This document shows, piece by piece, positions 9,301 to 63,885 of a stretch of 64,000 nucleotides of DNA. The translations under genes and the position numbers were made by a program. The first letter of the stretch is position 1; each line of letters begins with the position of its first letter. Under the pieces are notes generated by a model. It saw only the letters and a program-made list of their open reading frames with translations, searched no databases and was not told the origin of the DNA. Source of the stretch: a virus; the IMG/VR virus record IMGVR_UViG_3300049847_000663, positions 1 through 64,000 of that record; one strand, given 5' to 3'.

Positions 9301-9891
9301 CTTTTATCTCAAAAGAGGAATTATGAGCTTCTTTTCATTAAATGAATTAAAAACAATCCAAGTAATACTAGATTCTAGAAGTAAAGCTGGAGACGGTACG
9401 GATGAAAATCCATACAGAAGTATTGTTAATGTATTTACCACTGGTGGTGAATTGATTGCAACAAATGATCATTTTGTTAATAACATGATAAATGATTATT
9501 ACAGAAATCTTCACAAACAGAGAAATAAAAAGATTAGCGATGAGCCTAAAGAATTCTCACTTGACGAAATTCACATGCAGATAGATAATAAGGCTTTAAG
9601 TATTACTATGCATTTAGATCAATGGAATAAAATCAAACTTTATGTTGAAAGTTTAGAAAAACAATTGAAAGAAAAAGAATAGTGAGTTTAACGCAATTAA
9701 ACCCGCAAATACCATTAATTACACCAAAAGGTGGAGCACAAGCAGTAGCCATTATTGATTATTCAGAAGAGCACGATTTAAAATGGGTTTGTATTTTAGA
9801 TGAAAATGGTGAAGTTTGGACGTTTAAGAATAGTGATGTTAGAGGGTATCCGAATGAGACAATGGGAAGAAAGAAGTTTAAAATTAAGTAA
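6308..9891 (+). other. Array of about 15 small overlapping hypothetical CDS (e.g. 6308-6583 secreted Cys protein, 7331-7810, 8208-8570, 8770-9141, 9138-9326 Zn ribbon, 9323-9682, 9682-9891)
   Basis: Same-strand ORFs with ATGA/TAATG overlaps and SD motifs; no recognisable catalytic motifs. Confidence 0.65.
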
Positions 9892-11200
9892 CTTTCCATT
9901 CATAAACATTAGAACCGGGAATTGGTATCTTTTTGTATCCAGCATCTAGCATATTTCGAGTTTCACTCTTTAAAGAACTATACTGCTCTCCCAATAACTT
10001 AAATAATCTTTTCTTTTGCGCTCGAGTTCTACTAATCACAATATCGTCTTTTTTGTAAACATAGCTAGGTTGACTTGATCTTAAAAATGTAAAGCCTAGT
10101 TTTTCATAAACTTTACCACCAGTTGAAAATCCTATAGTTGCATAAGTTAAAACATTAATTGGGTTTTTATCTTTTATAAAAAACTTAAACAAACGACTAG
10201 CTCCACCATGAACGAATGTGTTCTTTTTTGTACAAAGTCTTAGGATTTCCCATTGATAATTCTTATTAAAGCGCGGCTTTCCCATAGTCAATATACAAAC
10301 GAGTTCTTTATTATAAAACAAACCGTAAGACCAACTAGAAGCTATATACTTTTGTTTGTGGTTTAAATCCAAAAATTCCCGCTCTTCATTAACAAAAACT
10401 TCTTGAATTAAGCAATCACTAGCTCTAATTTTTTGAGGTGAATTGTCTATATAAGACCATAGATAGTTTTTATGCGGTCGATTTTTTAATATATTTCGCC
10501 TAATTGAAGTTTTATCAAAACCATGTTTAACAGCTTCAGATCCCGATTTAAACTCCAAGGCTTCTCCGGTCACTACATGTACACCTCTAACAGGCTTATC
10601 TTTTGTTTGGCGATTTTTATAGGATAAGTCTAGTTCTTCTTTAGTAAGAGTTTTTTTATTAGGACTTTTGTATGTAAGTTGGTGTTTTTTTTGGCAGTCT
10701 CTACAGATTCGCATAAGCCTATCCCAAGACTGACTGGATTTATTATACTCAGAAAGCAATTTTAGTTCTTCACATTTCGGACATTTTTTATGTGGGATAT
10801 TGTCAACTAAAACATGTTTATTCTTATTACTCGGCTCTCTTTTTTCATAATTCTTAGCTTTATTTGATATTTTTTGTCTAGTTTCTAAACTTTTAACAAA
10901 GGAACCGTCAACAATATTAGTTGTATTATAACCATTCGGGGCTATTGAGTTATATTGTTTAATATAGAATTCTTCTTTTTCCTTAAGAAGATTTACTGGA
11001 ATATTATCTTCAATAACAGAAGATTCAAAAGAATCCCAACCATAAGATTTAAGTGCATTGTAAAATGCTGGGCATTGATTGTAGGATTTGAAAGAATTAT
11101 TAGATTTACGCCATCTACGTTTAGGATCTTGAGTAGTTGAACCTACGTAGACTTTATTGTTAGTTTTATTCACATGTTTATATACGACGCCGGTTTTCAT
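9884..11200 (-). CDS. Free-standing GIY-YIG homing endonuclease-like protein with Zn ribbon, NUMOD-like segment and C-terminal GNAT-like domain
   Basis: GVVY...VYVGST; APNGYN; CPKC...CRDC; C-terminal EILRLC...GGASRLF...VYEKLGF. Confidence 0.75.
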   Translation of the reverse strand: MKTGVVYKHVNKTNNKVYVGSTTQDPKRRWRKSNNSFKSYNQCPAFYNALKSYGWDSFESSVIEDNIPVNLLKEKEEFYIKQYNSIAPNGYNTTNIVDGSFVKSLETRQKISNKAKNYEKREPSNKNKHVLVDNIPHKKCPKCEELKLLSEYNKSSQSWDRLMRICRDCQKKHQLTYKSPNKKTLTKEELDLSYKNRQTKDKPVRGVHVVTGEALEFKSGSEAVKHGFDKTSIRRNILKNRPHKNYLWSYIDNSPQKIRASDCLIQEVFVNEEREFLDLNHKQKYIASSWSYGLFYNKELVCILTMGKPRFNKNYQWEILRLCTKKNTFVHGGASRLFKFFIKDKNPINVLTYATIGFSTGGKVYEKLGFTFLRSSQPSYVYKKDDIVISRTRAQKKRLFKLLGEQYSSLKSETRNMLDAGYKKIPIPGSNVYEWKVT

Positions 11201-22881: not shown

Positions 22882-22901
22882 CATACTATATTTGTTAAAA
22901 T
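22882..22901 (-). promoter_or_regulatory. Putative late promoter of the portal gene
   Basis: Identical to 14179-14198. Confidence 0.7.
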
Positions 22902-25198: not shown

Positions 25199-25825
25199 AT
25201 GATACTATTTTTATTGATGTTATTTGTTCAAGCAAAAGAACCAATGCGAGTAGCGGTCATTGATTCCGGATTTAATCCTTATGTTGTTGAAAAATTACAT
25301 AGATGTGATAACCTCCAAGTAAAATCCTTTGGAAATCCCACTACTTATAAACAAATAGAACATGGTACTAACGTTGCGGGTTTAATTGAAAAGTATGCAA
25401 AAAATAAATCTAAATTTTGTTTCATTCTAATTCGGGGATTATATACAACAAAAAGTACAATTGAATCAATACGTTATGCTATATTAATGAAAGCTAATAT
25501 TATTAATTATAGCGGAACTGGAAAATATGAATCTAAAGAAGAACATCAAGCTATATTAGATTTTTTAAATACTGGGGGAAAGTTTTTTACAGCTACTGGA
25601 AATGACTCTAAAAATTTAGATAAAGAATGTTCTGCATTTCCTGCATGTTATTCGTCACTTAAGATAAATGTAATAACTAATAGAGAATCCTATTCAAACA
25701 AATATTCAAAAGCTTTTATTTCCGATAAAGATGGAAAAAACGAAAACGTATATGATACTGAAATGACTGGAACTAGTCAATCAACTGCTATAGAGACGGG
25801 AAGATTTATTAATGAATCAAATTAA
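25199..25825 (+). CDS. Secreted subtilisin-like (S8) protease
   Basis: Signal peptide; VAVIDSG, HGTNVAG and GTSQST catalytic triad motifs. Confidence 0.85.
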   Translation: MILFLLMLFVQAKEPMRVAVIDSGFNPYVVEKLHRCDNLQVKSFGNPTTYKQIEHGTNVAGLIEKYAKNKSKFCFILIRGLYTTKSTIESIRYAILMKANIINYSGTGKYESKEEHQAILDFLNTGGKFFTATGNDSKNLDKECSAFPACYSSLKINVITNRESYSNKYSKAFISDKDGKNENVYDTEMTGTSQSTAIETGRFINESN

Positions 25826-30416: not shown

Positions 30417-30518
30417 TTAAATCTCATCAGTGCTAAACATCAGATCGGGATTGCAGATGTGATCTTTAATAAATTTCTTTACAGCATCTATTAGTTTTTT
30501 CATTGAACGCAAGTTCAT
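30417..30518 (-). CDS. 33-aa peptide under a sigma28-type promoter
   Basis: AAGGCGG SD; MNLRSMKKLIDAVKKFIKDHICNPDLMFSTDEI. Confidence 0.55.
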   Translation of the reverse strand: MNLRSMKKLIDAVKKFIKDHICNPDLMFSTDEI

Positions 30519-30542
30519 TGTGTACCGCCTTTTGTATATAAC

Positions 30543-30569
30543 TCATCGGCGGACTTCTTTAAAACTTAA
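30543..30569 (-). promoter_or_regulatory. Sigma28/FliA-type promoter
   Basis: TTAAGTTT-N11-GCCGATGA. Confidence 0.75.
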
Positions 30570-30706
30570 GGACTATTTGCATTATTAATTATTTTCTTTT
30601 TTATGCAAGAATCATACCAATTTATTTGCTGTATCATTGTGGGATTAAGTGACGTAAGTAGTTGATATCATTGATGAATATGTTACAATCATTCTGTCCA
30701 GTACTA

Positions 30707-31006
30707 CTATTCTTCATTCATCCTATTTACTATCGACCGCAGTGAAGCAAGGTCATCGTTTGTTTTGGATATGGAAACACCTACTGTCTCGTTTTGATAC
30801 GTTTCAGCATTTATTTCCTTAAGATCATTTCCTATCTCAGGTTTGGACTTTTTCAATCCATGTCTTTTGTTGACGGTCTTTACGCTAGTGACTACTCTCA
30901 AACGTCTACTAGAATCCACGATGGACTTAGGATGTGAGCGACCTAAGCTTAGAGGTGGACCTGTCTCGGTGTCTTTTCTCATTTTGAGACGACTGCCCTT
31001 TTTCAC
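30707..31006 (-). CDS. Hypothetical basic protein
   Basis: 99 aa; upstream sigma70-type promoter (31047-31075) and late motif (31021-31032). Confidence 0.45.
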   Translation of the reverse strand: MKKGSRLKMRKDTETGPPLSLGRSHPKSIVDSSRRLRVVTSVKTVNKRHGLKKSKPEIGNDLKEINAETYQNETVGVSISKTNDDLASLRSIVNRMNEE

Positions 31007-31046
31007 GGTCCCGTCTTAATATACTTGTTAAATTTTCCTCATTAAA

Positions 31047-31075
31047 AGTGTATCAAATTGAGATAGTTTTGTCAA
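31047..31075 (-). promoter_or_regulatory. Sigma70-type promoter with an embedded palindrome
   Basis: TTGACA-17-TACACT; TATCA-AAT-TGAGA at 31051-31063. Confidence 0.65.
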
Positions 31076-31129
31076 CTTTTCTTTATTCTTAAGTAAAATC
31101 AATGAGTTCTCATTATTTTTATTTTTTCC

Positions 31130-31156
31130 TTAAGTTTTATTGAAACTGCCCGATAA
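31130..31156 (+). promoter_or_regulatory. Sigma28/FliA-type promoter
   Basis: TTAAGTTT-N11-CCCGATAA upstream of 31192. Confidence 0.75.
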
Positions 31157-31191
31157 GTAGTATATAAGATTGATAACTAAGGGAGACTAAG

Positions 31192-31674
31192 ATGAGTTTG
31201 ATTCAAGAATTGAAAAATAAGCTAAACGAAGCAAAAAAACGGTTTTATAGCCTTAAGACCAAAAGAGCAAAGGAAAAACAACGCGACATCATTCGGGACC
31301 TTAATTTTCAGCTTGAGGACGCTCTACTTGAAGGACTAAAACCTTACCTAAACATGAGGCATGAGGGTGTCATTGTTTCCGGTGGGACTGACGCATTAGC
31401 AAGGACTGAATTTGGTATTGTGCCGGTTTATGCGGTGAATGACCGACTAAGCAAATCGTGGTATGATACTACTTGCTGCGTGTCTTATAAGGATGGAGAC
31501 AAGATCACTTTTGAAATAAAACATCCCAACGTTGAAAATGGTCGTCTTAATTGGTTTGCCGCCGAGGTTGAGGGTGGCTCTTTAGATACAGAAAAATATA
31601 ACAAGTTATGTAAACAAGACAATTTGGCGTTCTTTAAAAAACAAGACGGTTCAATGACCGGACTATTTAAATAA
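31192..31674 (+). CDS. Hypothetical (probable early) protein
   Basis: AAGGGAG SD; first gene after a sigma28-type promoter. Confidence 0.65.
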   Translation: MSLIQELKNKLNEAKKRFYSLKTKRAKEKQRDIIRDLNFQLEDALLEGLKPYLNMRHEGVIVSGGTDALARTEFGIVPVYAVNDRLSKSWYDTTCCVSYKDGDKITFEIKHPNVENGRLNWFAAEVEGGSLDTEKYNKLCKQDNLAFFKKQDGSMTGLFK

Positions 31675-32444
31675 GGAGACTTTATGAGGACTAAAGAGTT
31701 TACAATAATGTGCGCGATTGTGATGACGATTGTTACAATCCCAATGTGGTTGTTGTTTCAGTTTTTTGTGCTACTTAATACAGGACTTTAAGTATGTGGG
31801 TTATTAAGACTAAATCAGGACACGAATACGACCTAGTTTTTAAATCTTATGAGACCGCTGAGGATTGGTTGTATTCAACGCTGCTTAAAGGGGCGACTTA
31901 TGTTAGGGACCGTTACTTAATTGTGCCTGTAGACTAAACAAGGGAGTTTTTAGATGAAAACAAAAGAAGACATGAAAAATACATACGAAGTGATAAGATC
32001 TTATGTTAATGAAGTTATAGGCCTTGAGCTTGACCTTCCACGCGCTCTGAACCTGATAGAACAAACGCTTGATACTGAGATTGATTGGTCAAACAAGGAA
32101 GCCTCACAACGGGCACTATTTGACTTCATTGAAAAACGTCAAGGTGAGGTGATACAATGAAAATTTTTTCTTATGAACTAACTAAAGTTACGTTCAGGGT
32201 TGCAGACCTAGTTATGGGTTTTTCCATCGTTTTAGTTTCCATGGTGTTTTTAATTAAAATCTTATGCGAGGTGTTTTCATGAAATACCTAACTAATTCTT
32301 TACGTTCTACCGGTTTAGTTAGTGAGTTTGATTTACAGCAACTAAAGAAAGAAGCTATTGAATTCACGAACTTAATCAAACAGTTAAAAGCTGACGGTCA
32401 ACATAGCTCTAGTGATTTAATACGATCTTCAGTAAAAAGACTTT

Positions 32445-32858
32445 ATGAAATTAGGGCAATTGCTGAGCTACACATTAAGTCTCTTAAAAGAGCGCATCTA
32501 CGGATTGTATCAAATGAAACAGATGAAAATGAAAAATAAACGTAGAAACTCAATTGAGATTAGTCCTGAAACGCGGTTAAAAACGCTGTATTTCCTGTTA
32601 CAAGGGCTTGACGCACATGAGTTAGCCGTTAACCTAGAAATAGGTTTTAAGGCTTTAAAACACCGTTTAACCCTTATTTATAAGTTTTACGGGGTTAAAA
32701 ACAGGATTCAATTGATGAGTCTTTATATAAACATCCCAACACGAGTTAGAAAATCTTTTATAAATGATGAAAATAAAGTAGTTACGCGTAAAAAATACAA
32801 AACTAAAGAGCAATTTAAAGAAAATGAAAATATTTTGCCACAAGGCCTAAAGTTTTAA
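32445..32858 (+). CDS. LuxR-like HTH regulator
   Basis: LLQGLDAHELAVNLEIGFKALKHRLTLIYKFYGVKNRIQL; true start probably about 32523-32529. Confidence 0.7.
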   Translation: MKLGQLLSYTLSLLKERIYGLYQMKQMKMKNKRRNSIEISPETRLKTLYFLLQGLDAHELAVNLEIGFKALKHRLTLIYKFYGVKNRIQLMSLYINIPTRVRKSFINDENKVVTRKKYKTKEQFKENENILPQGLKF

Positions 32859-32874
32859 AAAATTAGTCCGATGA
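32848..32874 (+). promoter_or_regulatory. Sigma28/FliA-type promoter
   Basis: TAAAGTTT-N11-TCCGATGA upstream of 32923. Confidence 0.75.
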
Positions 32875-32922
32875 GATATATGAACCGCGATGAACATGGT
32901 TCGAGCATAAGGGAGAAATAAA

Positions 32923-34586
32923 ATGACAATGATTTACAAAATAACAAAAAAATTCACAAAACTTGATAAAAATCCTTATTTCGAAGACACCAGAGCATGG
33001 CATACATTTATTGATATATGTTGTACACATAACGTCGTTGAAGGTTATGAATTAAATATCGATTTAATGATGAAAGAGCACTCTCAAACTTATGATTATT
33101 ATGATGATACTTTGTTGTTGTTTGTTGAAGATGGACTTCTTGAATGTATTTACGACCTTAAAAAGGAGAAATAAAATGAAATACATGAAAAGATCAAAAA
33201 TTTATAAAGCTTCGAACGTAATATTTAATCCTAACACCATTGAGGCGTTTTCCTATCGTTGGTGGAAATTTGTTAAAGTTATTGATGGTTTAGTGGTTTT
33301 TAATAAATATCGCTATTCAGTTTCAACCGCCAAACATCAAGCTAAAGTCAGACAACTAATGATTGAATTAGGAATTAAGGTTGATCTATATGTTAATGTG
33401 CGCGAATCATTAATAGACCAGACGATTGAAGAGCTTATTATTCAAACTGAAGAGAACATATGTGATGACTTTTTGTATAAAAAACTAAAACAAGGCGAAG
33501 CTTATGATAGAAAAAAAGCTAAACAAGCTTCATTAGTCGAGCGTGTTATTGAGAATACTTATAACCAAGTTGAGGTGAGTTGTGGATAAAAAAATAATTT
33601 TAAGTAAAACTGATGAAATTTTATTAGAAGATATTTTAGAATATTTGTTACATGATAAAGAAAAAGAAGACTTGTTAACTTCTTTTGAAGTTAATGAAAC
33701 AGATTTTTTTGATGAAAATGGTGATTTAATGGTAGATAGACTACCAAGAACCGCGCACGATCATATTTATGTAAAAGCTTTTAAATTATTTAGTCAATTA
33801 AAAGAGGTACAAAATGTTTAACTATAAAAACTTAATTCAAGATTGCGCGATTAATCAAGGGTATTGTTTAGGCCTTGAAGCGTTTCATCGCTTAAAAGGG
33901 TCTTTAGACCACGCTAACTTTTACTTAAACCTAGCTTCAGACTTTAATAAAGTAGCTGTAAAACTTAAAAATAGAGCTTTAAAACAAGGTTTAAACCTAA
34001 ACCGTGAAGAGCTAACTTCGTTGATTTATTCAGGCCTTAAACAAGGTAAACAGGAAGCTTCGGAGAATGTGAAATGTTGTTAATCCTGATTATTTTAGCA
34101 TGTTTTGGTTATATACCGTTTTGGGTTGTGTTAATTGGATTGTTTTTTTGTTAGAAAGGTTAAGTATGAATAAATATTTATATAATTTAGTTTTGATAAT
34201 TATATTTTCATTATTTTTTATTAGTTTAGGTAAAGTTTTTTAAAAATCTTCCGAAGAGATAGTAACGACAAAGGAGTAAGATAGTGAGTAAAAATAAATT
34301 CACGTCCGGACCATGGACACCTGAATTAGACACAACACAACTTAATCATAAGACATACATAAGGACGACTAAAGATAAAGATAACGAATTTGTTCAAATT
34401 GCTGAGATAAATCGTTTTGTTGATATTAAGCTTGACGGAGCTAACTCTGCTCTTATCGCCGCCGCGCCGGAAATGTACGAAGCTTTAGAAGAGTTACTTG
34501 AAGTTGTTAGACGTTTTGGTGGTATTCCTCTTGAAGATCCTTTTAAGTATGACAAGTTACTAAAAAAAGCCCGAGGTGAAAAATGA
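32923..34586 (+). other. Small hypothetical early CDS (32923-33174, about 33176-33589, 33582-33821, 33814-34083, 34284-34586)
   Basis: Strong SD motifs; 34284 has FTSGPW...ANSALIAAAPEMYEALE, typical of phage small early proteins. Confidence 0.65.
34231..34257 (+). promoter_or_regulatory. Sigma28/FliA-type promoter
   Basis: TAAAGTTT-N11-TCCGAAGA upstream of 34284. Confidence 0.7.
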
Positions 34587-34706
34587 GTGAAGAAACAAAG
34601 AAAAAAATTGAAGATTTAAAATATAGAATAAACTTAGGGTCATGTAATACTGAACAATTAGCAGCATGGCTTTTTGAGTTGTTAGAGATTTTATCAGGAG
34701 ATCAAC

Positions 34707-35126
34707 ATGAGTGAATTATTTTTATTATTTAACTTAGTTTTTGCATCAAATGAATTAGATTTAGCTATTGATAAGGCAGCGCAGAAATACAACATTGAGT
34801 CTCAAGACCTAAGACTAATTGCGGCGGTTGAGTCGAGCTATTCAGTTAATCCTAAAATCAATGAAAATAGGAATAAAACTATTGACATGGGACCTTTTCA
34901 AGTAAATTCAATACACAAAAACACAACTTGTAAAATGTTTAATATTGAAACACTTGACGGGAATGTTCTTTGCGCGGCTAAACTAATAGCTATGCATAAA
35001 AAACATAAAGGGACTGATTTTTACTGGCTTGCACGTTATCATTCTAAAACACCTAAATATAAAAAAATATATCAAGAAAAACTAGAAAAAGCTAAAGTTT
35101 TATTTTTAATTGCCGATAAGAATTAA
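34707..35126 (+). CDS. Secreted lytic transglycosylase (SLT, IagB/EtgA-like)
   Basis: Signal peptide; IAAVESS catalytic Glu; DMGPFQVNS; ARYHS. Confidence 0.8.
   Translation: MSELFLLFNLVFASNELDLAIDKAAQKYNIESQDLRLIAAVESSYSVNPKINENRNKTIDMGPFQVNSIHKNTTCKMFNIETLDGNVLCAAKLIAMHKKHKGTDFYWLARYHSKTPKYKKIYQEKLEKAKVLFLIADKN
35093..35119 (+). promoter_or_regulatory. Sigma28/FliA-type promoter (perfect consensus)
   Basis: TAAAGTTT-N11-GCCGATAA. Confidence 0.8.
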
Positions 35127-36216
35127 AAGGAAGAAATTATGAATAAAGAAATATTAATTATAGTTTTAACAATTTTACTTTTACCGATTTGGTTTCCTAT
35201 GTTTTTAATTAGATTTTGTTTTGATAGAGCTGAAATATGCATGAAAATATTAGAATAAAGGCGGTAAAACAAATGATTTTTAAAAATGTATATGATTATT
35301 TCTATTGGTTAGGCGTTCAAGATAAAAGAACAAAAATTAATAGAAATTTTATCAAAACTGGAATTGTAAAGAAAATTAAAATAGCTTATTTAAAAGGTTA
35401 TAACAAAGGAAACAAAAATGCAAATAAACAAAAAAGAAATTCTAGAGCAAGCTAAGCAATTAAAAGTGGATTTTATTGTGGGAAATAGTGGGACTAAACA
35501 TTTATGCGGGCTTCACGTTAAAGACGAAGGGTCAGCCAGCCTTAATGAAGCTTTATCTCAAGCTTTAAAGATCGGTTACGACAGAGTTTATCTTTACAGA
35601 GAAGATCCCAAAAAAGTAACAAATGTGTCTAAAATTAATACAAATTTTAACTCAAATCAAAGTGAATATAGCAAAATTAAAATGTCTTTAGATAACTTGA
35701 AAAACACCTTTGGGGTTGATATACTTAAAGCTGTAGCTATGACTGAATTAACTTTAACTGAAAATAGAGGATAAATATGAACATTTATCAAGTTAAGTTT
35801 GACGCTAAAAAAGAAAACATACAAAACAGCTTTACAATTGTTGTTGACGCGCATTGTGCTTATGAAGGTGACGCGATTGAAGAGGCTAAAAACCACATTA
35901 AACGTCATTATGAAGGTATTTTAAGCCTTGAGTTAAAGTCGGTTTGTTTTCTTGAAACGGTTGAAAATAGAAGTAAAAAGATTAATCAATTTAATAGGGA
36001 TTAATATGAAACCAATTAAATTTATCGATTTAGATGTTGATGGAATTGATACAAACGACTACCCTGATTTTTGCGACGCTTTTATTTCATCAGCTACGGC
36101 GGTTTTTGAAGACGGTTCTATGCGCGATGCTAACGATGATGAATTAGAAGAATTAAACGAAGATTCAGATTTAGTCTATTCACTTGTTTTAGAGCGTATT
36201 TACTAGGGAGAAAAAA

Positions 36217-37266
36217 ATGAACATTCAAGAATTTAAAAAAGTATATCCTTTTCTAAGGAAACATAAAGTAACTCCTTTTTTGTGGGGAAACGAAGGGGTA
36301 GGTAAAACTCAAATTGTGGGACAAATTGCTAAAAGTCTAGACACTGGACTTGTTCATTTGTATCTAGCCACTCAAGACGTTGGGGATTTAATTGGCCTTT
36401 TAAAACACAATCCTGACGGTTCAGTTTCACATTCTAAACCTAGTTGGTTTCCAACCCAAGGAAATGGTATTATTTTCCTAGATGAAGCAAACAGATGCCA
36501 TCCTGACGTTATGCAGGCTATGTTTAGCTTTATCACGCGAGGAATGCTTCATGAGCATGTTTTACCTCAAGGTTGGACTATTATTGCAGCAGGAAACTAT
36601 GATAACGAAGATTTTAATGTGACGAGCACTTCAGACGCCGCTTGGTTATCGCGTTTTTGCCACATTGATTTTCAACCAACAACGGAAGAATTTGTTTTGT
36701 ACGCGGAAAATAAAGAAGCTTATGACGTTGCCGGTTTTATCCGCGAAAATGCTGATTGTCTTGAACGAGCTAACAAAAAAGACAATTTAAACTTTATAAC
36801 TCCAGATAGACGTGCTTGGCTTGAAATGGTAAGTCCACTTGACAATGAAGATGAGATTGAAAATGAGAAGTTTGAATTATTTAAAGGATGTGTTGGCCAA
36901 GCTGCAGCAAGTAGTTACATGACTTATAAAAAGAAAAAGGAAAAAGCAGTTTCTGCAGGTCAAATCATCAATAACTACGAAAAAGTGCGAGAAACAATTT
37001 TAACTTTATCTAATCCTGAAAATGTTAGGCTTGATATGATTACAAAAACTTGTAACGAATTAATTGCTAGAATTAAAACTGATGATGAATTCCTAAAAGA
37101 TGAAACAAAACTTAATAATGTATTTCAGTTTGTTTTAGATATTCCCCGAGAATCTTCTCTTACTTTTATTAATGAAATTGTTAAAACAACAAGCGTTAAT
37201 AAAGGACTTATCTTAAATAATAAGAATTTTTCAAATAGAATGAAAGTTAGAATTTTAGAAAAATAA
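36217..37266 (+). CDS. MoxR-like AAA+ ATPase
   Basis: GNEGVGKT Walker A; IIFLDEANR Walker B; IIAAGN; SRF arginine finger. Confidence 0.85.
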   Translation: MNIQEFKKVYPFLRKHKVTPFLWGNEGVGKTQIVGQIAKSLDTGLVHLYLATQDVGDLIGLLKHNPDGSVSHSKPSWFPTQGNGIIFLDEANRCHPDVMQAMFSFITRGMLHEHVLPQGWTIIAAGNYDNEDFNVTSTSDAAWLSRFCHIDFQPTTEEFVLYAENKEAYDVAGFIRENADCLERANKKDNLNFITPDRRAWLEMVSPLDNEDEIENEKFELFKGCVGQAAASSYMTYKKKKEKAVSAGQIINNYEKVRETILTLSNPENVRLDMITKTCNELIARIKTDDEFLKDETKLNNVFQFVLDIPRESSLTFINEIVKTTSVNKGLILNNKNFSNRMKVRILEK

Positions 37267-38450: not shown

Positions 38451-39227
38451 ATGATTAAAAGTTTAACAAAACATCAAGAAAACCAAATAGATGTATATTT
38501 ACAAAAATGGCTTAAAATAGGATTAAGAACCGAACCTATTTGTGTAGAAAAAGCTAAAGAAGCTGCTGAATTTTTTTATGAAGAAATTTTACAAATAAAA
38601 ACACCACAAATTATTTTTTTAGATTCACCGATGGCCTGTCAGATTTTTTTGAATAAAAATTCACAGCTTTATTCACAGCTTTATTCACAGCTTCGTTCAC
38701 AGCTTTATTCACAGCTTCGTTCACAGCTTGATTCACAGCTTCGTTCACAGCTTGATTCACAGCTTGATTCACAGCTTTATTCACAGCTTTATTCACAGCT
38801 TGATTCACAGCTTTATTCACAGCTTGATTCACAGCTTGATTCACAGCTTGATTCACAGCTTTATTCACAGCTTCGTTCACAGCCAAATTTAGAGCATTTT
38901 TATCCAGCCTGGTCTAATTTATTTATGAATTATTATGGATTGTATGATTATATTTTAAATGAAATCTTTGAAGATAAAAAACCTCACTTTAATAAATTTT
39001 TACAATTTTTAAAACATTGTGAAGAATTTCATCAAATTTATATGTCTAAAGAAGTATGTTTAATATCTAATTTTCCTAAAGAAATTCACAGAAATAACAA
39101 AGGTCAATTACATAACGTTAATGATTTAGCTTTAAGATATAGAGATGGATTTGGTCTTTATTCAGTTAATGGATCTTTAAAAAATAGTTTACTTGAAACT
39201 GTAATGGAAGAATGTTATAATTACTAA
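38451..39227 (+). CDS. DUF6745-like protein with SQLx tetrapeptide repeats
   Basis: LDSP before the repeat; C-terminal GQLHN...ALRYRDGFGLYSVNG. Confidence 0.7.
   Translation: MIKSLTKHQENQIDVYLQKWLKIGLRTEPICVEKAKEAAEFFYEEILQIKTPQIIFLDSPMACQIFLNKNSQLYSQLYSQLRSQLYSQLRSQLDSQLRSQLDSQLDSQLYSQLYSQLDSQLYSQLDSQLDSQLDSQLYSQLRSQPNLEHFYPAWSNLFMNYYGLYDYILNEIFEDKKPHFNKFLQFLKHCEEFHQIYMSKEVCLISNFPKEIHRNNKGQLHNVNDLALRYRDGFGLYSVNGSLKNSLLETVMEECYNY
38661..38882 (+). repeat. 12-bp coding tandem repeat TCACAGCTT-(TAT/CGT/GAT), 18.5 copies
   Basis: Directly visible; encodes SQLY, SQLR and SQLD. Confidence 0.95.
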
Positions 39228-39258: not shown

Positions 39259-39906
39259 ATGTCCGAATTAAAATTAACACCAGAACAACAAAAAATAGCA
39301 GAAAAATATAAAACATTTTATAAAAATGTTAATTTATGTACAAAACCCGCGGATAGAGCTTTAGTTGAGGAAACTTTTAGAAAAATATATAAAAAACAAA
39401 AAGAAAATGGTGAAAATGTAAGCTTAAATCCCATATTTCATTGGGAAGATTCACCACTTAAAGGGGCTAAAAAAGTAATTGAGCTTTTAAAAGCGCACCC
39501 AGAAACTAAAGAAAAACATAAAGATTATGATGTAAACAAAAAAGCAGACATTACAAATATTTTAAGTTTTGCAAATTATGGTTCATTTGAAGCTTATTGG
39601 GTGGCTTATTATGATTTTGAAAATACAGTATTAAATAATAACAGAAATCAAGAAGAAGTAAATTTAACAAAAACAATCTGTCAAGAATGTGGCGTTTTCT
39701 GGACTTTTAATGAAAATATTATTATTACTGAAAAACCCATTAGAATTACAGTAAAAGATAATAAAATCCATTCTTATGACGGAGAAAAATGTATTGAATA
39801 TAAAGATGGAACTGGGATTTACGCAATTGATGGATTTCTTAAGAAAAGTCTCCTTGAAGCGGTACTTGATTCTTGTTATGAAGAGCCTAAAAATAATAAT
39901 TTATAA
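39259..39906 (+). CDS. DUF6745-like paralog without the repeat
   Basis: WEDSP; C-terminal IHSYDG...IEYKDGTGIYAIDGFLKKSLLE matches 38451-39227. Confidence 0.7.
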   Translation: MSELKLTPEQQKIAEKYKTFYKNVNLCTKPADRALVEETFRKIYKKQKENGENVSLNPIFHWEDSPLKGAKKVIELLKAHPETKEKHKDYDVNKKADITNILSFANYGSFEAYWVAYYDFENTVLNNNRNQEEVNLTKTICQECGVFWTFNENIIITEKPIRITVKDNKIHSYDGEKCIEYKDGTGIYAIDGFLKKSLLEAVLDSCYEEPKNNNL

Positions 39907-40151: not shown

Positions 40152-40664
40152 ATGAAATCCATGCTTGAGCAAATAGAAGCGGCGGGGGCTTGGGAAGATC
40201 CACTGTTTAATTCCTTGGAACGATTTTTTTCTAAAATAAATATTCAAGAAGAAGATAGGTGCTGGGAATGGATAGGATGCAAAAACCGAAAAGGATACGG
40301 ATATATCGGTTTTAAAAATAGAAACTTTTTAGCACACAGGCTTATGAAATTTTTAGCAGAACCATACGAGTTTAAAAATCAAAAACTTTTGGTTTGTCAT
40401 CATTGTGATAATCCAAGTTGTGTAAATCCGAATCATTTATTTTTAGGGACTCACGCTGACAACCTGGCAGATATGTCAAAGAAAAAAAGACATTGGCTTG
40501 GAAAGAGAAGCCACTGCAAAAATGGGCATGAGCTTAACGAAGAAAACTCGCGACCTAGAAAGATCGGCGGTAGAAAATGTTTAATATGCTGTCGAAAAGC
40601 TAATGCTGCTTATAGGCGCAGACAAAAAGAAATCGCCGCGCTCGTGCCGAAGGGGGATGAATAA
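40152..40664 (+). CDS. HNH endonuclease
   Basis: CWEWIG...GYG...AHR...[16 protein letters not shown]; HCKNGH...CLIC. Confidence 0.85.
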
Positions 40665-43390: not shown

Positions 43391-44245
43391 ATGATAAAAT
43401 TATCTCACTCAGCTAAAGAACTTTATAAAAGATGCCCTAAAGCTTATTACATTCATTACATGCTTAACTTAAGAAAAAAAGTTGTAGGATCGGCGCTGCC
43501 GTTTGGTTCAGCTATCGATGCTGCTCTTGAAGTTCTTCTTAAAGAAAAAGATTTAGTAAAAGCTAAGGAAATTTTTAAAACTAAATGGTTTACCTTTGAA
43601 ATTAATAAAAAACCGGTAAATGGACCAGAAACAACCCAAATACGTTATTATAAGGCCGATATGGACCCGGCAATGTTTGAGGAAGGTGAAGTTACCACTC
43701 AACACGAAAGTCTTTATAGAAAAGGAATAATGTTTCTAGAGGCTTATAAAGATCAGGTGGTCCCAAAAGTTAAAAAGGTTTTAGGCACGCAAATCCCAAT
43801 ATCTATTAAAAACGCAACGGGAGACGAAATAGTTGGATTTATTGACTTAAAATGTGAATGGGAAGATGGTCGAATCTTAATCGTTGATAATAAAACTTCA
43901 AGTCGAGCCTATAAAACTGATATAATTCAAACAATTGACGCTAGCCAGCTGGCCTTATATGGGTTTGCCGATAAAGAACATGATGCTTTAGCTTATTTTG
44001 TTATTAATAAAGAAATTAGGAAGAAAAAAGAACCTAGGGTTGTTATTCAAACTATTATAGACAAAGCACCAAAAGAAGTAATTGAAAAAACTCTTGACAG
44101 TTTCGATCAAACGTTATATAACATAAGAAATGGTTTATTTCCTTCAAATAATCCTGACTGTTTTGCTTACGGAGAAGAATGTACTTGTCAGCTATTTGAA
44201 CGAGAAGGCTACACCGCTTTTGATTATGTCGGAAAGGACAAATAA
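43391..44245 (+). CDS. PD-(D/E)XK exonuclease (Cas4/RecB-like)
   Basis: LSHS...CP; GFIDL...IVDNKT; QLALY; C-terminal Cys residues. Confidence 0.85.
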   Translation: MIKLSHSAKELYKRCPKAYYIHYMLNLRKKVVGSALPFGSAIDAALEVLLKEKDLVKAKEIFKTKWFTFEINKKPVNGPETTQIRYYKADMDPAMFEEGEVTTQHESLYRKGIMFLEAYKDQVVPKVKKVLGTQIPISIKNATGDEIVGFIDLKCEWEDGRILIVDNKTSSRAYKTDIIQTIDASQLALYGFADKEHDALAYFVINKEIRKKKEPRVVIQTIIDKAPKEVIEKTLDSFDQTLYNIRNGLFPSNNPDCFAYGEECTCQLFEREGYTAFDYVGKDK

Positions 44246-45961: not shown

Positions 45962-45990
45962 TTGTAAAAATTTATATCTAGTGGTATAAT
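45962..45990 (+). promoter_or_regulatory. Sigma70-type promoter, probably leaderless
   Basis: TTGTAA-17-TATAAT with extended TG, 7 nt before the ATG at 45998, no SD. Confidence 0.7.
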
Positions 45991-52544: not shown

Positions 52545-52982
52545 ATGAGCAAAGTTTATCGCCATTCTGATGGAACATATAACGATTACCCAGAACAGAC
52601 TATCGTAAACAGAATTCCAACAACAGTTAATATTTATAGTACATTTGAAGAAATCCCAGTTTCCAAAGGTTTAAAATTTGACGAAAACAAAGTACCTCTT
52701 GATTTAATTCCTTATGATGCTTTAGTTGAAATTGGTAAAGTTTTACAAGCCGGAGAAAAAAAGTACGGGACTGCTAACTGGTCAAATGGAATCGAAATGC
52801 GAAGGCTTCTTGCTGCGGCAATGCGACATTTAGGACAATTTAATAATGGCGAGGACATTGACGAGGAAACTCAAACACTTCACATAGCAAATTCTGCTAC
52901 TAATTTATTATTTGCAATTTGGATGTATAAGAATCGCCCGGACCTAGATAATCGTTGGGCTAAGAAAAAGGATTCAAAATGA
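52545..52982 (+). CDS. dATP/dGTP diphosphohydrolase-like protein (DUF5664)
   Basis: GLKFDENK...LIP...GEKKYG..NW..G...AAMRH...DEET..LH. Confidence 0.75.
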   Translation: MSKVYRHSDGTYNDYPEQTIVNRIPTTVNIYSTFEEIPVSKGLKFDENKVPLDLIPYDALVEIGKVLQAGEKKYGTANWSNGIEMRRLLAAAMRHLGQFNNGEDIDEETQTLHIANSATNLLFAIWMYKNRPDLDNRWAKKKDSK

Positions 52983-55099: not shown

Positions 55100-55642
55100 G
55101 TGGCGAAATCAAATTTGGATTGTACAGGATGTTCTATGAAAATCATCCCAAACCCAATTTTATACAAAGTATTAAATCGAGGAAGACTTGAAGGATTTAT
55201 TGTAGCTTCCTTTTTTTGTATACTATTCTTTTTACTTTCAGGATGCTCAAGTTATAAAAAAGTATATTCAGTGGATGAAAAACTTCAACCTTATGTAACC
55301 CAATTTGAGAAAATAAGCAATAAAAAAATAGATAATTTAATTGTAAAATTTAGCTATTTATCTAATAAAATCGTAGCTCAATGCACTCAAGGATTTAACC
55401 CTTTAATTGAAGTAAATTCACGTTTTATAAACAAAATAGGAAATTCGGCTGAAATGGAATCTATTATGTTTCATGAGCTTGGTCATTGCATTTTATTAAG
55501 AACTCACACAAAAGATACCAATTCTATAATGTACCCATACATGATTCCTGTGGATTTCTATTTAGTTAATTATAAACTTTACATTTCAGAGCTTTTTGGT
55601 GTAGAATATGATAAAGAATTTGACTGGAGTGTTTATGACTAA
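55100..55642 (+). CDS. Matrixin-like (metzincin) metalloprotease, probable lipoprotein
   Basis: Lipobox LLSGC; HELGHCILLRTH; Met-turn SIMYP. Confidence 0.75.
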   Translation: MAKSNLDCTGCSMKIIPNPILYKVLNRGRLEGFIVASFFCILFFLLSGCSSYKKVYSVDEKLQPYVTQFEKISNKKIDNLIVKFSYLSNKIVAQCTQGFNPLIEVNSRFINKIGNSAEMESIMFHELGHCILLRTHTKDTNSIMYPYMIPVDFYLVNYKLYISELFGVEYDKEFDWSVYD

Positions 55643-56495: not shown

Positions 56496-59303
56496 ATGAA
56501 TGCATCAAATATGCTACTTAGCGCAATTGTAGCTTTTAGAACTTACGCGAAATTTGTTCCACATTTAGGCCGAAGAGAATCATTAGCGGAATCTATTAAT
56601 AGAAACATGAACATGCATCTAGATAGATTTCCTAAACTATCTAGTGATATTACTAAAGCATACAATTATGTTCATAATCTTAAAGTAATGCCTTCAATGC
56701 GAGCTTTACAGTTTTCGGGCGAAGCAATTTTAAAGAATCACGCAAGACAATATAACTGTTCATTTACGAATATTGATAATGTGAGAGTTTTTGGTGAAAT
56801 TCTATATTTACTTCTTTCTGGTGTTGGAGTTGGTTTTTCAGTTCAAAAACATCACACTAGAAATTTACCAAAATTAAAACAACCAAAAGAAAATGGATTT
56901 TTTTCAGTTCAAGATTCTATAATGGGTTGGGCTCAGTCTATCGATTTATTAATGGAAGCTTATTTTTATGGAAGAGTAAAGCCGCGTTTTGATTTTGGTG
57001 ATATTAGACCAAAAGGTAGTTATTTAGTTACAACGGGCGCAAAAGCTCCAGGACCTGAACCTCTAAAAAAAATGTTAGAAATGGTTGAAGAAAAATTAAA
57101 AAATGCTATCGGTAGGCAATTAAGACCTATAGAATTACACGACATTATTTGTATAATTTCCGATGCTGTATTGGCTGGAGGTATAAGAAGAGCTGCGTTA
57201 ATTTCTCTATTTGATCGAGACGATACCGAAATGCTTAAAAGTAAATCAGGTGAGTGGTGGAATAATTTTCCATGGAGAGCGAGAGCTAATAACAGCGCGG
57301 TTCTTCCAAGAAACGAAGTCTCCAAAGATGAATTTTTTGAAATATTTAAAATTTGTAAAGAATCAGGAAGCGGAGAGCCGGGTTTTAGTTGGAGTAATAA
57401 CACTGATTGGGGATTCAATCCGTGCGTTACTGGCGAAACAGAAATCTTAACTTCGGAAGGTTATCAAAGAATTGACGAATTAGTAGATCAACCTACTAAA
57501 ATATGGAACGGTTTTGAGTGGAGTGAAGTGACGCCAAAAATTACAGGTTATAATCAAGAAATCCTCACAATTAACTTTTCTGATGGAAGAACTCTAAACT
57601 GCACTCCTTATCATAAATTTCATATTTCTATTGATTATCGCGGAGGAACTAAAATAGTAGAAGCTAAAGATTTAGAGCCCGGAATGAAGTTAATTAAACA
57701 CGAGTTTCCGATAATGGATACCATGTTAGAATTAGAAGACGCTTATACCAACGGATTTGTTTCAGCTGAAGGTATGGAATTAAATAAAACTTTATATGTT
57801 TATAAACCGAAAGAAATGTGCTTAGAAAGAATACAAAATAAAAAATTAGTAAAATGGGAAGAAAACAATAATAGATATAGAGTTATTTTAAATAAAACTC
57901 CATTATCTAAAAATTTTGTACCACTTGATTATAGCGTAAATTCTAAACTGGAATGGTTATCTGGTTTGTTTGATGGTGACGGAACTGAATTAAAAGAAGG
58001 CGGATTACAATTAGTTTCGATTAATCGAGATTTTCTAACAAATTTACAAAAATTATTATCAACTTTAGGTATCCAGTGTAAAGTATTATTTGCAAATAAA
58101 GCGGGAATGAGATTAATGCCCGATGGTAAAGGTGGTAGCGCTTTTTTTCAATGTCAAAATGCGTATAGAATTTGTATTGGTGCTAAACAAATGCAAAATT
58201 TAAAATCTCTAGGATTAAAGTGCGAAAGAATGAGTTTTGAAAAAACGCCACAAAGAGACGCATCTCAGTTCGTTTCTGTTGTTGATATCACAGAAAATGG
58301 ATTTGCTGAAAAAGTATATTGTTTTAATGAGCCTAAACGCCATATGGGTATTTTTAATGGAGTATTGACTGGTCAATGTCATGAAATTGCACTGAATTCA
58401 AATCAATTTTGTAATTTAACAACAATTAATCAAACTGACATAAAAAGCGAAAAAGATTTTTTAAATCGAGTTTATCAAGCAGCTTTACTTGGTACTTTAC
58501 AAGCCAGCTATACTAATTTTGATTATCTCCGTCCATCTTGGCAGATTACAACAGAAAGAGAATCTCTCTTGGGTGTTAGTTTTACAGGAATAGCGGATAG
58601 TAAATCTATGATTAATGCTGAAATGCTTAAGAAAGCCAGTCAATTAGTTTTAGATGTAAATGAAAAATATTCTAAAAAAATTGGTATTAATTTAGCGGCT
58701 AGAACAACCACGATTAAACCCGAAGGTACGTCTAGTTGCGTTCTAGGTAGTTCAAGTGGAATTCACGCTAGACACGCGCAACACTATATTAGAAGAATTA
58801 GAATGAATAAAGATGACAGTCTCGCTGTCTATTTAAAAAACACAATCCCAAGTCTAGTTGAAGATGATATTTTTAGCTCAACTGGTGTTGTAGTGAGTAT
58901 CCCACAAGAAAGTCCAAATGGTGCTATTTTAAGAGAAAACGAAACCGCTCTTTCTTTGTTTAATAGAACTCTTTATTACAGTAGAAATTGGGTGAATCCG
59001 GGACATAGATATGGCGATAACAAACACAACGTTTCTGTTACCATTTCCGTAAAAGATAATGAGTGGGAAGATTTACGTAATCAAATGTGGGAAAATAGAG
59101 ATCTTTATTCAGGAATCAGTTTGTTGCCTTATGACGGCGGAAATTATCAACAGGCACCTTTTGAAGAGTGTTCTAAAGAAAAATATGAAGAAATGAGTAA
59201 GCAGGTAAAAGATATAGATTTAAAACAAGTTAAAGAAGAAACAGACAATACAGCCAGAGTAAAAACTGTTGCTTGTAGCGGTGGAGCTTGTGAGATTGTA
59301 TGA
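56496..59303 (+). CDS. nrdJ: Class II (B12-dependent) ribonucleotide reductase with intein
   Basis: YNCSF; GGIRRAA; NP|CHEI; QFCNL; TIKPEGT; C-terminal CSGGAC. Confidence 0.9.
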   Translation: MNASNMLLSAIVAFRTYAKFVPHLGRRESLAESINRNMNMHLDRFPKLSSDITKAYNYVHNLKVMPSMRALQFSGEAILKNHARQYNCSFTNIDNVRVFGEILYLLLSGVGVGFSVQKHHTRNLPKLKQPKENGFFSVQDSIMGWAQSIDLLMEAYFYGRVKPRFDFGDIRPKGSYLVTTGAKAPGPEPLKKMLEMVEEKLKNAIGRQLRPIELHDIICIISDAVLAGGIRRAALISLFDRDDTEMLKSKSGEWWNNFPWRARANNSAVLPRNEVSKDEFFEIFKICKESGSGEPGFSWSNNTDWGFNPCVTGETEILTSEGYQRIDELVDQPTKIWNGFEWSEVTPKITGYNQEILTINFSDGRTLNCTPYHKFHISIDYRGGTKIVEAKDLEPGMKLIKHEFPIMDTMLELEDAYTNGFVSAEGMELNKTLYVYKPKEMCLERIQNKKLVKWEENNNRYRVILNKTPLSKNFVPLDYSVNSKLEWLSGLFDGDGTELKEGGLQLVSINRDFLTNLQKLLSTLGIQCKVLFANKAGMRLMPDGKGGSAFFQCQNAYRICIGAKQMQNLKSLGLKCERMSFEKTPQRDASQFVSVVDITENGFAEKVYCFNEPKRHMGIFNGVLTGQCHEIALNSNQFCNLTTINQTDIKSEKDFLNRVYQAALLGTLQASYTNFDYLRPSWQITTERESLLGVSFTGIADSKSMINAEMLKKASQLVLDVNEKYSKKIGINLAARTTTIKPEGTSSCVLGSSSGIHARHAQHYIRRIRMNKDDSLAVYLKNTIPSLVEDDIFSSTGVVVSIPQESPNGAILRENETALSLFNRTLYYSRNWVNPGHRYGDNKHNVSVTISVKDNEWEDLRNQMWENRDLYSGISLLPYDGGNYQQAPFEECSKEKYEEMSKQVKDIDLKQVKEETDNTARVKTVACSGGACEIV
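57423..58376 (+). mobile_element. 318-aa intein with LAGLIDADG domain, ending Gly-Gln
   Basis: NP|CVTGETEILT...LNCTPYHKF (block B)...LSGLFDGDG...VYCFNEP...NGVLTGQ|CHEI. Confidence 0.9.
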
Positions 59304-62327: not shown

Positions 62328-62666
62328 ATGGAACCTAAAAAATTCCAATCTTGGTTAAAGGCGCATCTTAGAACAGCTTCCAAGTATTGGCCAGAAAAGA
62401 CTAAAGTTTATCATCGAGTCAAACAAGGTCGAGGTGAATATAAATGCGAAGCTTGTGGGATTGTTCTCCCTCAAAAACAGTTACAAATTGATCACATTGA
62501 ACCTGTAATTGATATAACCGGCTTTCATGACTGGAATACTTATATTGAGAGATTGTTTTGTGATTCTAGTAAGTTACAAGCTTTATGTAAACCGTGTCAT
62601 ATGAATAAAAGTCGAATTGAGAATGAAAAAAGAAGATTATTTAAAACAAATAAGAAAAAACGTTGA
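62328..62666 (+). CDS. HNH endonuclease
   Basis: CEACG...IDHIEP...LQALCKPCH. Confidence 0.85.
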   Translation: MEPKKFQSWLKAHLRTASKYWPEKTKVYHRVKQGRGEYKCEACGIVLPQKQLQIDHIEPVIDITGFHDWNTYIERLFCDSSKLQALCKPCHMNKSRIENEKRRLFKTNKKKR

Positions 62667-62691
62667 CAAAACTGTATAAATAATATACAGT
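62663..62691 (+). promoter_or_regulatory. Sigma70-type promoter overlapped by an 8-bp inverted repeat
   Basis: TTGACA-17-TACAGT; ACTGTATA-N5-TATACAGT. Confidence 0.65.
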
Positions 62692-62720: not shown

Positions 62721-63071
62721 ATGTCAAATGACGTAACATATACCGATGACCTAACCCTCGACTTTCCCGATGCGGAAGAAGTTCGAAATGAAACAACACC
62801 TAAAGAAGTTATTTATCGAAATAAAAAGCGCACGTTTCTTGCAAGCCTTGGAAGTGACATTTTAAATCGAGCCCGCACTCAAGGTATTTTCGATCATTCA
62901 GCAACATTAACTGCTAATTTTTTAGGGTTAACTTCAGAAGATCAAGAACGAATGATTAATGAAGTTATTGCAGTTGTACAAAATAATGGATTTAAAATTG
63001 AAGTTACGAAAAACGAAGATGGTTCACGTTTAGTTAAAGTTGACTGGAGTAAAACTGATGTTTCTAATTAA
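62721..63071 (+). CDS. Hypothetical protein
   Basis: AGGAG SD; 116 aa. Confidence 0.6.
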   Translation: MSNDVTYTDDLTLDFPDAEEVRNETTPKEVIYRNKKRTFLASLGSDILNRARTQGIFDHSATLTANFLGLTSEDQERMINEVIAVVQNNGFKIEVTKNEDGSRLVKVDWSKTDVSN

Positions 63072-63885
63072 TTTAATTCTTATTACATTTTCTTTCGCTT
63101 CAGTAAATCAACCTAAAACAAATAAAGAGCTTCGAAATGCTGCTGTAATGGTCGTTAATAACGAAATGTCAAGTGGGGGGACTGGCTCTATTTTAAAAAG
63201 CGATAATACGGGCTCTTTAATTTTAACTAATAAGCACGTTTGCCGTGTTGTTGAAAACGGAGGCTATATTATTCACGAAAGACTTCGCTCAAAAGTTGTT
63301 GCTTATAAAGTTTACACAAAACACGATCTGTGTATTATTAAAATTAAAAACAATCTAGGTGTTAATTTAAAGCTCGCTGATAAACGACCGGAAATGGCAG
63401 ATACCAGCGTAGTTTCTGGCTTTCCCCAGCTTAAACCTAACACGATCACTAGAGGTCACTTTTCCGACCTACTATTAGTTAATGTTATGGTTGGAGAAGA
63501 TGAATGTACCGAAGAGGAATTCCTTACTAATATGTATTGTATTTTTATGGGATTTAAGCCTCGAATCGAAACGTTCAAATCCCAACATACCTCTAATCTA
63601 ATTCAACCCGGAAATTCCGGTAGTGCCGTTTTTAATGGCGACGGTGATCTTGCTGGTGTGGTGTTTGCTGGAAGTGGAGATCTTGGATTTGCTTTAATTG
63701 TCCCTTATGATTTTGTTGTTGACTTTGTTAAAAATCAAGAAACATATCCATTTGTTAAGCCTACTTTTAATTTCACAATCATGACTGCATCTAGATCTAC
63801 CGATGCAATTAAAAATATATGTAATTTAATTGATATTGATCTTTGCAAGAAAACCGCATTTAATATGCCTTATATTTCGAGATAA
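63040..63885 (+). CDS. Secreted trypsin-like serine protease
   Basis: Signal peptide; LTNKHVC, HDLC and GNSGS triad motifs. Confidence 0.85.
   Translation: MTGVKLMFLINLILITFSFASVNQPKTNKELRNAAVMVVNNEMSSGGTGSILKSDNTGSLILTNKHVCRVVENGGYIIHERLRSKVVAYKVYTKHDLCIIKIKNNLGVNLKLADKRPEMADTSVVSGFPQLKPNTITRGHFSDLLLVNVMVGEDECTEEEFLTNMYCIFMGFKPRIETFKSQHTSNLIQPGNSGSAVFNGDGDLAGVVFAGSGDLGFALIVPYDFVVDFVKNQETYPFVKPTFNFTIMTASRSTDAIKNICNLIDIDLCKKTAFNMPYISR

Follow-up and report, generated by a model that had tools for sequence, protein, structure and literature searches.

Putative sigma-28 (FliA)-type promoters at the head of a small-gene block in the genome of an uncultured phage

Textbook lytic phages begin infection from housekeeping sigma-70 promoters, and the early promoters of T4, T5 and lambda are read by the host sigma-70 holoenzyme. 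Cascades of phage-encoded sigma factors are also known, for example those of SPO1 (gp28 and gp33/34) and T4 (gp55). Sigma-28, the sigma factor for flagella (FliA in Escherichia coli and Salmonella), reads the class 3 flagellar promoters, for which the E. coli consensus is TAAAGTTT-N11-GCCGATAA (PMC2859248). In E. coli K-12, the flxA gene of the cryptic prophage Qin is a sigma-28 target (PMC5493296). For the predator Bdellovibrio bacteriovorus HD100, Karunker et al. (2013, PMC3627812) reported the motif TTAAG-N16-CCGATA in 92 of 140 promoters of the attack phase. Here we describe five sigma-28-type promoter sites within 4.6 kb of an uncultured phage genome, IMG/VR virus record IMGVR_UViG_3300049847_000663 (G000 in comparisons with relatives). 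The window analysed is the first 64 kb of this 79,820-bp record.

The five sites (P1 to P5) lie at 30543-30569 on the minus strand and at 31130-31156, 32848-32874, 34231-34257 and 35093-35119 on the plus strand, where a preliminary description of this DNA had placed them. The two octamers are separated by exactly 11 nucleotides (nt) in all five cases, and the spacer sequences are mutually unrelated. As that description also held, each site is shortly upstream of a Shine-Dalgarno (SD) sequence and a start codon (19-48 nt from the end of the -10 box to the start codon, 5/5). Orientation matches that of the downstream gene throughout, the lone minus-strand site included, and the downstream open reading frames (ORFs) of P1 to P5 encode 33, 160, 83, 100 and 39 amino acids (aa). 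The -35 octamer is TAAAGTTT, without change, in three sites and TTAAGTTT, with one change, in two. The -10 boxes (GCCGATAA, CCCGATAA, GCCGATGA, TCCGATGA and TCCGAAGA) have an invariant CCGA core. The site at 35093 is the exact consensus, and the other four deviate from it at 2-3 of 16 positions. Beyond the search pattern, all five sites share two further bases, a T that follows AAGTTT and a G immediately 3' of the -10 octamer.

Chance does not readily produce such a set. The pattern TWAAGTTT-N12-CCGAWRA matched five times in the window, versus a mean of 0.01 in dinucleotide shuffles (0 of 100 shuffles reached five). A scan of the whole genome, which the preliminary description had proposed, returned the same five matches in 79,820 bp (the remaining 15.8 kb adds none), versus a mean of 0.003 in first-order Markov shuffles. 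Other copies of GCCGATAA, at 43968, 53575 and 54752, lack the -35 box, as had been noticed before. Membership of the five sites in the sigma-28/FliA promoter class is supported by their sequence, spacing, orientation and position. They are located at a strand switch (30.5-31.1 kb) and over the following 4 kb, where they divide a 5-kb block of small genes, most of them without a family match. One of the resulting units is leftward and four are rightward. The block is directly upstream of a MoxR/VWA module and the replication genes, an arrangement common in early or host-takeover regions.

The sites resemble the class 3 flagellar promoters of E. coli and Salmonella in both octamers, in the 11-nt spacer and in their position upstream of a gene start. 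Unlike those promoters, they occur in a lytic-type genome as five copies in 4.6 kb, they have the extra conserved T and G positions, and the genes that follow them are small and of unknown function, not flagellar or chemotaxis genes. With the attack-phase promoters of B. bacteriovorus they share the use of a sigma-28-class motif well beyond flagellar genes, and two of the five sites begin with TTAAG, but their spacing is TWAAG-N15-CCGA rather than the N16 reported. The nearest precedent that we found is flxA, also a phage-derived gene under a FliA promoter. However, flxA is a single gene in a defective prophage, whereas the sites described here form an array heading the putative early region of a complete, replication-competent phage genome. 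As in T4, T5, lambda and a relative of this phage (G001, see below), strong host-type promoters appear to precede small early genes, to be followed by a phage-specific late promoter. The difference is that the sigma factor used here is apparently flagellar, active only after the hook-basal body is built; in G001, 18 near-consensus sigma-70 sites take the place of the sigma-28 sites of this phage. Like the sigma cascades of SPO1 and T4, promoter classes other than sigma-70 may partition the genome in time, but those phages encode their own sigma factors and none is detectable here.

In the reading that we prefer, the five sites would be working sigma-28 (FliA/SigD/WhiG) promoters, read by the host RNA polymerase with its own flagellar sigma factor, and would serve an early or accessory block of small genes. 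Some sigma-70-like promoters would act within the replication module, and the structural operons would be preceded by a late motif of one box, TTAACAA(A/C)TATA, which is specific to the phage family and presumably read with a phage factor. That a host sigma-28 holoenzyme reads the sites is probable in our judgement.

The test set beforehand was a search for a phage-encoded sigma-28-like factor that could explain the sites, and none was found in the complete genome or in two relatives, G012 and G013. Six-frame searches of G000 gave no match to PF04542 (Sigma70_r2), PF04545 (r4), PF08281 (r4_2), TIGR02937 or TIGR02479 (FliA_WhiG) at E ≤ 1-10. Similarly, TIGR02937, TIGR02479 and PF08281 were not detected in six-frame searches of G012 and G013 (r2 and r4 were searched in G000 only). 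The same profile searches do detect these sigma families in control genomes. Among ~99 ORFs scanned singly (Pfam, PHROGs or NCBIfam), no sigma, anti-sigma or RNA polymerase family was identified. FlgM (PF04316) was not found at E ≤ 1 in G000, G012 or G013, a search of limited power given that FlgM is short and divergent.

G012 and G013 are whole-genome relatives obtained by scanning IMG/VR for the exact consensus. G013 (78,859 bp) has ~40 genes in common with G000, with identities of 62% for the portal, 47% for the terminase, 49% for the family B DNA polymerase and 54% for a 1171-aa tail protein. We identified six sigma-28-type sites in this genome at 1.3-8.7 kb, all co-oriented and with an SD sequence and ATG 24-38 nt downstream. 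G012 (87,572 bp; portal 53%) has nine, eight of which are on the strand of the small-gene region adjoining MoxR/VWA. The strict pattern has four matches in each of the two genomes versus 0.007 expected. The sites of both relatives are clustered before small genes. The genes behind the sites are mostly unrelated among the three phages and the motif is retained. The exception is a 137-aa protein of the third unit of G000, whose G012 homologue (53% identical) is directly downstream of a sigma-28-type site.

A further relative, G001 (84,179 bp; portal 49%), lacks sigma-28-type sites, even allowing one mismatch. Its genome has 6 perfect and 12 one-mismatch copies of TTGACA-N16-18-TATAAT. Most of them are on the early strand, an extended TG is frequent, and an SD sequence and ATG follow. 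Examples of the sigma-70 consensus on the minus strand of G001 are at 83651, 80948, 76334 and 68450, before early and middle genes. All four genomes (G000, G001, G012 and G013) carry the late motif core TTAACAA(A/C)TATA on the strand of the structural genes. Thus, the early class varies and the late class tracks the phage lineage, as expected if the host holoenzyme reads the early promoters and a conserved phage factor reads the late ones. Because the motif core is conserved in G013, G012 and G001, a conserved phage late factor is likely.

Seven additional family members were found on contigs of metagenome-assembled genomes (MAGs) by a scan for the large terminase (portal 37-58% identical), and the motif is present in none of the seven. 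The bins of these family members are assigned to Bacteroidia, Flavobacteriaceae, Proteobacteria, Saccharibacteria and Bdellovibrionales. SD enrichment is low in the members binned with Bacteroidia and Flavobacteriaceae, and SD use is heavy in G000, G012, G013 and G001. The differing SD use suggests that the family spans hosts of different phyla. Closer relatives of G000 occur on metagenome contigs of 82-86 kb, recovered by searches with its uracil-DNA glycosylase (UNG) and S1-C protease (UNG 70-89% identical). A UNG alignment scan gave identities of ≤58% in IMG/VR, and likewise among the metagenome matches listed. A single tRNA gene, for tRNA-Cys, was identified in G013, and none in G012 or the window.

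The wiring is not unique to this phage and recurs widely in the contigs of uncultured viruses. At least 119 IMG/VR stretches have the exact 16-base consensus, versus 40, all single-copy, for a reversed control pattern. More than 20 stretches (GC content 28-55%, mostly mutually unrelated) have 2-5 clustered copies, each before an SD sequence and ATG (e.g., L023, L034, L037, L039, L052, L067, L073, L076, L099 and L134). Across 137 such sites, positions not used for selection show a C before TAAAG, a T after TTT and a G after the -10 box, and then an A/T-rich, TATA-like stretch. Sigma70_r2 was not detected in five cluster-bearing IMG/VR records. The large proteins of the cluster phages have no close cultured relatives, the best matches being rIIA-like proteins, the large terminase of Myxococcus phage Mx1 (26%) and Gordonia tail proteins.

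Two other promoter classes are predicted in G000. A sigma-70-like promoter, TTGAAA-N17-TATAAT with TG, is at 39193-39221 (+), before the gene at 39259, and other sigma-70-like sites are at 45962-45990, before the primase-helicase gene, and at 62663-62691. As a class, sigma-70-like matches are not enriched (68 versus 64.4 in shuffles), and TTGACA-N16-18-TATAAT has no perfect and six one-mismatch copies in this phage. The preliminary description had proposed a switch to sigma-70-type promoters for the replication genes. Individual sites before some genes of the replication module agree with this, but the class is not enriched and has no perfect member, and the switch is plausible but weakly supported. 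The late-promoter-like motif TTTAACAAATATA(A/G)TAT occurs on the minus strand only, where it precedes the operons for tail, capsid, portal and terminase. The copy of TTTAACAAATATA before the portal gene is at 22887-22899 (-), and further minus-strand copies are at 4332-4320, 14196-14184, 25156-25144 and 31032-31020, and, outside the window, at 72738-72726.

Three other explanations of the sites were considered. A phage-encoded specificity factor, such as a very divergent sigma factor or an adaptor that retargets the polymerase, might read them, and might be an early product or a virion component. No family match was obtained for about two thirds of the ORFs, an undetected phage factor is already required for the late motif, and sequence searches are known to miss phage sigma factors easily, T4 gp55 being an example. 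However, a factor that recognizes both sigma-28 octamers at the canonical 11-nt spacing should resemble FliA closely enough to be recognizable as a homologue, and thus the absence of any such protein (E ≤ 10, six-frame, three genomes) counts. Further, all units of the block begin with the same promoter type, so there is no upstream gene to supply a phage factor first. The unrelated phages that share the motif have no common protein in these regions, and the sister phage G001 has sigma-70 consensus sites instead. We consider a phage-encoded reader quite unlikely. It is also unlikely, in our view, that the sites are real sigma-28 promoters serving only as conditional, "moron-like" boosters of accessory genes while the host is motile, in a phage whose infection starts from sigma-70-type promoters (e.g., 30662-30689, +) or from read-through. 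This would fit the sigma-70-like sites in the control region and the replication module, and flxA provides a precedent (PMC5493296). Against it, the sigma-70-like matches are no commoner than in shuffled sequence, sigma-28 sites are at every operon start of the block, and no integrase was identified among the individually scanned ORFs. In addition, the sigma-70 sites of G001 are strong, so that the weakness of such sites in G000 looks like replacement rather than addition. Repeats that are not promoters at all, whether sites for a phage DNA-binding protein or products of chance or recombination, are highly improbable given two boxes around a spacer of fixed length and variable sequence, an exact match to a known sigma consensus, and an orientation and start-codon distance that are consistent in three genomes.

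Several points weigh against reading by the host sigma-28 holoenzyme. Promoter activity and timing are predicted from sequence, not from transcripts, and early expression of the block is suggested by gene content and position only. The consensus used is that of E. coli and Salmonella, and the sigma-28 of the host, if it has one, may have a different preference. P4 has the weakest -10 box of the five (TCCGAAGA). The conserved G and the A/T-rich, TATA-like stretch 3' of the -10 box, seen both here and in the unrelated phages, are unexplained. The sigma-70-like sites at 30662-30689 (+) and 31075-31047 (-) could also feed the units, and sigma-28 may not be the sole entry. Finally, the phage evidently has a late-motif factor that the searches missed, and thus transcription factors can escape them.

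P1 (TTAAGTTT-N11-GCCGATGA, 30543-30569, -) would direct the leftward unit, and the end of its -10 box is 24 nt from the ATG of the 33-aa ORF (30417-30518, -). The region to the left of this ORF (29.6-30.4 kb) is variable and poorly coding. The folds of the two leftward leaders are unremarkable, with z = -1.8 for the predicted transcript from P1. Metagenome variants in the reads of four runs are ~4-12% divergent over the region. Among the differences listed (up to 30719), which cover P1 as the only one of the five sites, there is no substitution at 30421-30612 (P1 and the start of the 33-aa ORF), and the flanks have 21 substitutions in 95 nt leftward and 11 in 107 nt rightward. The 33-aa ORF has an in-frame 15-nt deletion at 30499 in the variants.

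Between P1 and P2 is a divergent control region (30570-31129) that contains sigma-70-like sites at 30662-30689 (+) and 31075-31047 (-), the late-motif copy at 31032-31020 (-) and a doubtful 99-aa ORF (30707-31006, -). The two sigma-70-like sites (30662-30689 and 31047-31075) face each other and, if active, would give convergent, overlapping transcripts across the doubtful ORF. There are no Rfam matches at gathering thresholds in the window, and noise only at 29.4-31.2 kb.

P2 (TTAAGTTT-N11-CCCGATAA, 31130-31156, +) is 35 nt before the ATG at 31192, with the SD sequence AAGGGAGA. The unit that it heads (unit 2; 31192-32858, +) consists of 7-8 small ORFs (160, 35, 47, 68, 41, ~90 and ~114 aa), for which no Pfam, PHROG or NCBIfam match was identified. 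In a metagenome variant (run X3), P2 and the first gene of this unit are apparently separated by ~290 additional bases, around 31182-31187, and 186 other letters stand in place of 32284-32526. From these differences, the early block is mosaic between strains. The last gene of the unit (32514-32858, +) has the look by eye of a LuxR/GerE-type helix-turn-helix protein (a ...GVKNRIQL... stretch) and could be an early regulator. Searches of Pfam, NCBIfam and PDB sequences gave no match for it, and its single-sequence AlphaFold model is of low confidence (pLDDT 60).

P3 (TAAAGTTT-N11-TCCGATGA, 32848-32874, +) is 48 nt before the ATG at 32923, and its -35 box overlaps the stop codon of the upstream ORF. 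Unit 3 (32923-34243, +) has ORFs of 83, 137 (phrog_7247), 79, 89 and 47 aa. P4 (TAAAGTTT-N11-TCCGAAGA, 34231-34257, +) is 26 nt before a GTG at 34284, and unit 4 (34284-35126, +) encodes a phrog_1273 protein (100 aa), a 43-aa ORF and a transglycosylase-like protein (139 aa). P5, the exact consensus TAAAGTTT-N11-GCCGATAA (35093-35119, +), overlaps the last part of the transglycosylase-like ORF, being contained in its 3' end, and the ATG at 35139 follows after 19 nt. Unit 5 (35139-36206, +) contains small ORFs, after which come the MoxR AAA+/VWA module, starting at 36217, and the replication genes.

The 79,820-bp record is rated complete and has identical 127-bp ends, an overlap that is probably from assembly of a circular sequence. 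The GC content is 33.9%. Structural genes are on the minus strand (1-4.3, 9.9-25 and 65.7-79.7 kb), and the plus strand carries small-gene blocks at 4.4-9.9 and 25.2-30.1 kb and then one long run at 31.2-65.8 kb. We identified genes for a T4/T5-type large terminase, portal, DnaB-type primase-helicase and family B DNA polymerase, as well as a class II ribonucleotide reductase with an intein. Other products include an ERF annealing protein, PD-(D/E)XK exonuclease, ThyX, dUTPase, UNG, M15 endolysin and several proteases.

The intein in the ribonucleotide reductase gene (56496-59303, +) has a LAGLIDADG domain, and free-standing HNH and GIY-YIG endonuclease genes are found at 9884-11200, 40152-40664 and 62328-62666. 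The gene at 52545-52982 (+) encodes a dATP/dGTP diphosphohydrolase N-terminal domain (PF18909, E = 6e-29), of a MazZ/DatZ-like family tied to modified-base phage DNA. Three proteases are predicted on the plus strand (25199-25825, 55100-55642 and 63040-63885). Their types are S8 subtilase-like with a signal-like N-terminus, metalloprotease-like and S1-C trypsin-like. The S1-C protease is a hallmark of the family, present on dozens of metagenome contigs of 70-86 kb.

The phage was detected in 11 DNA sequencing runs (freshwater, freshwater sediment and aquatic metagenomes from seven studies) and in no RNA run. Its host is probably a low-GC freshwater bacterium that uses SD sequences and has a factor of the sigma-28 family. 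Strong SD use argues against a host in the Bacteroidota, a phylum without flagella. Homologues provide few host clues: the best named UNG matches, to Patescibacteria and Bacilli (~55-62%), are uninformative, and the protease homologues have no organism names. The preliminary description had suggested a possible link of the sites to a predatory host by way of the dominance of FliA in the Bdellovibrio attack phase. That dominance is confirmed by published work (Karunker et al., 2013, PMC3627812), but there is no specific support for an attack-phase link in the case of this phage. Among cultured phages, the nearest relative infects Silvanigrella aquatica (Bdellovibrionota), and its terminase and portal are each 29% identical. 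We identified no sigma-28-type sites in the Silvanigrella phage, in the Bdellovibrio phage phi1422 or in the family member from a Bdellovibrionales MAG. Each of 301 Bdellovibrionota genomes (~1-5 Mb) has 0-5 copies of the strict pattern. With no more than five strict copies in any of these genomes, five in 4.6 kb of phage DNA is an extreme density.

Reading by host sigma-28 would make expression of the block dependent on a host that is flagellated and motile. Sigma-28 is free in cells whose flagellum works, because these have exported FlgM. We propose, tentatively and as something possible rather than likely, that members of this family of ~80-kb phages have exchanged one early promoter class for the other (sigma-70 and sigma-28), so that the takeover genes would be expressed only in motile, flagellated cells and the state of the host would gate infection. 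Such gating may arise through adsorption to the working flagellum, or in a host (e.g., an attack-phase predator) dominated by sigma-28. Adsorption to the flagellum may be as simple a reason for the wiring as a predatory host.

Literature searches yielded no description of sigma-28-driven early genes in a lytic phage. Host-read phage early promoters that use the flagellar sigma factor, as predicted here, would be new in that respect. The family comparison (sigma-28 in three genomes, sigma-70 in a fourth and the late motif in all) argues that the early class is tuned to the host machinery and not inherited. The value of the finding is in the promoter class across viruses, more than in a single genome. 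If the reading is correct, this would be a new use for a well-known alternative sigma factor. Dependence of the first phage genes on the flagellar sigma would restrict productive infection to motile cells, and host physiology would gate infection by a simple mechanism.

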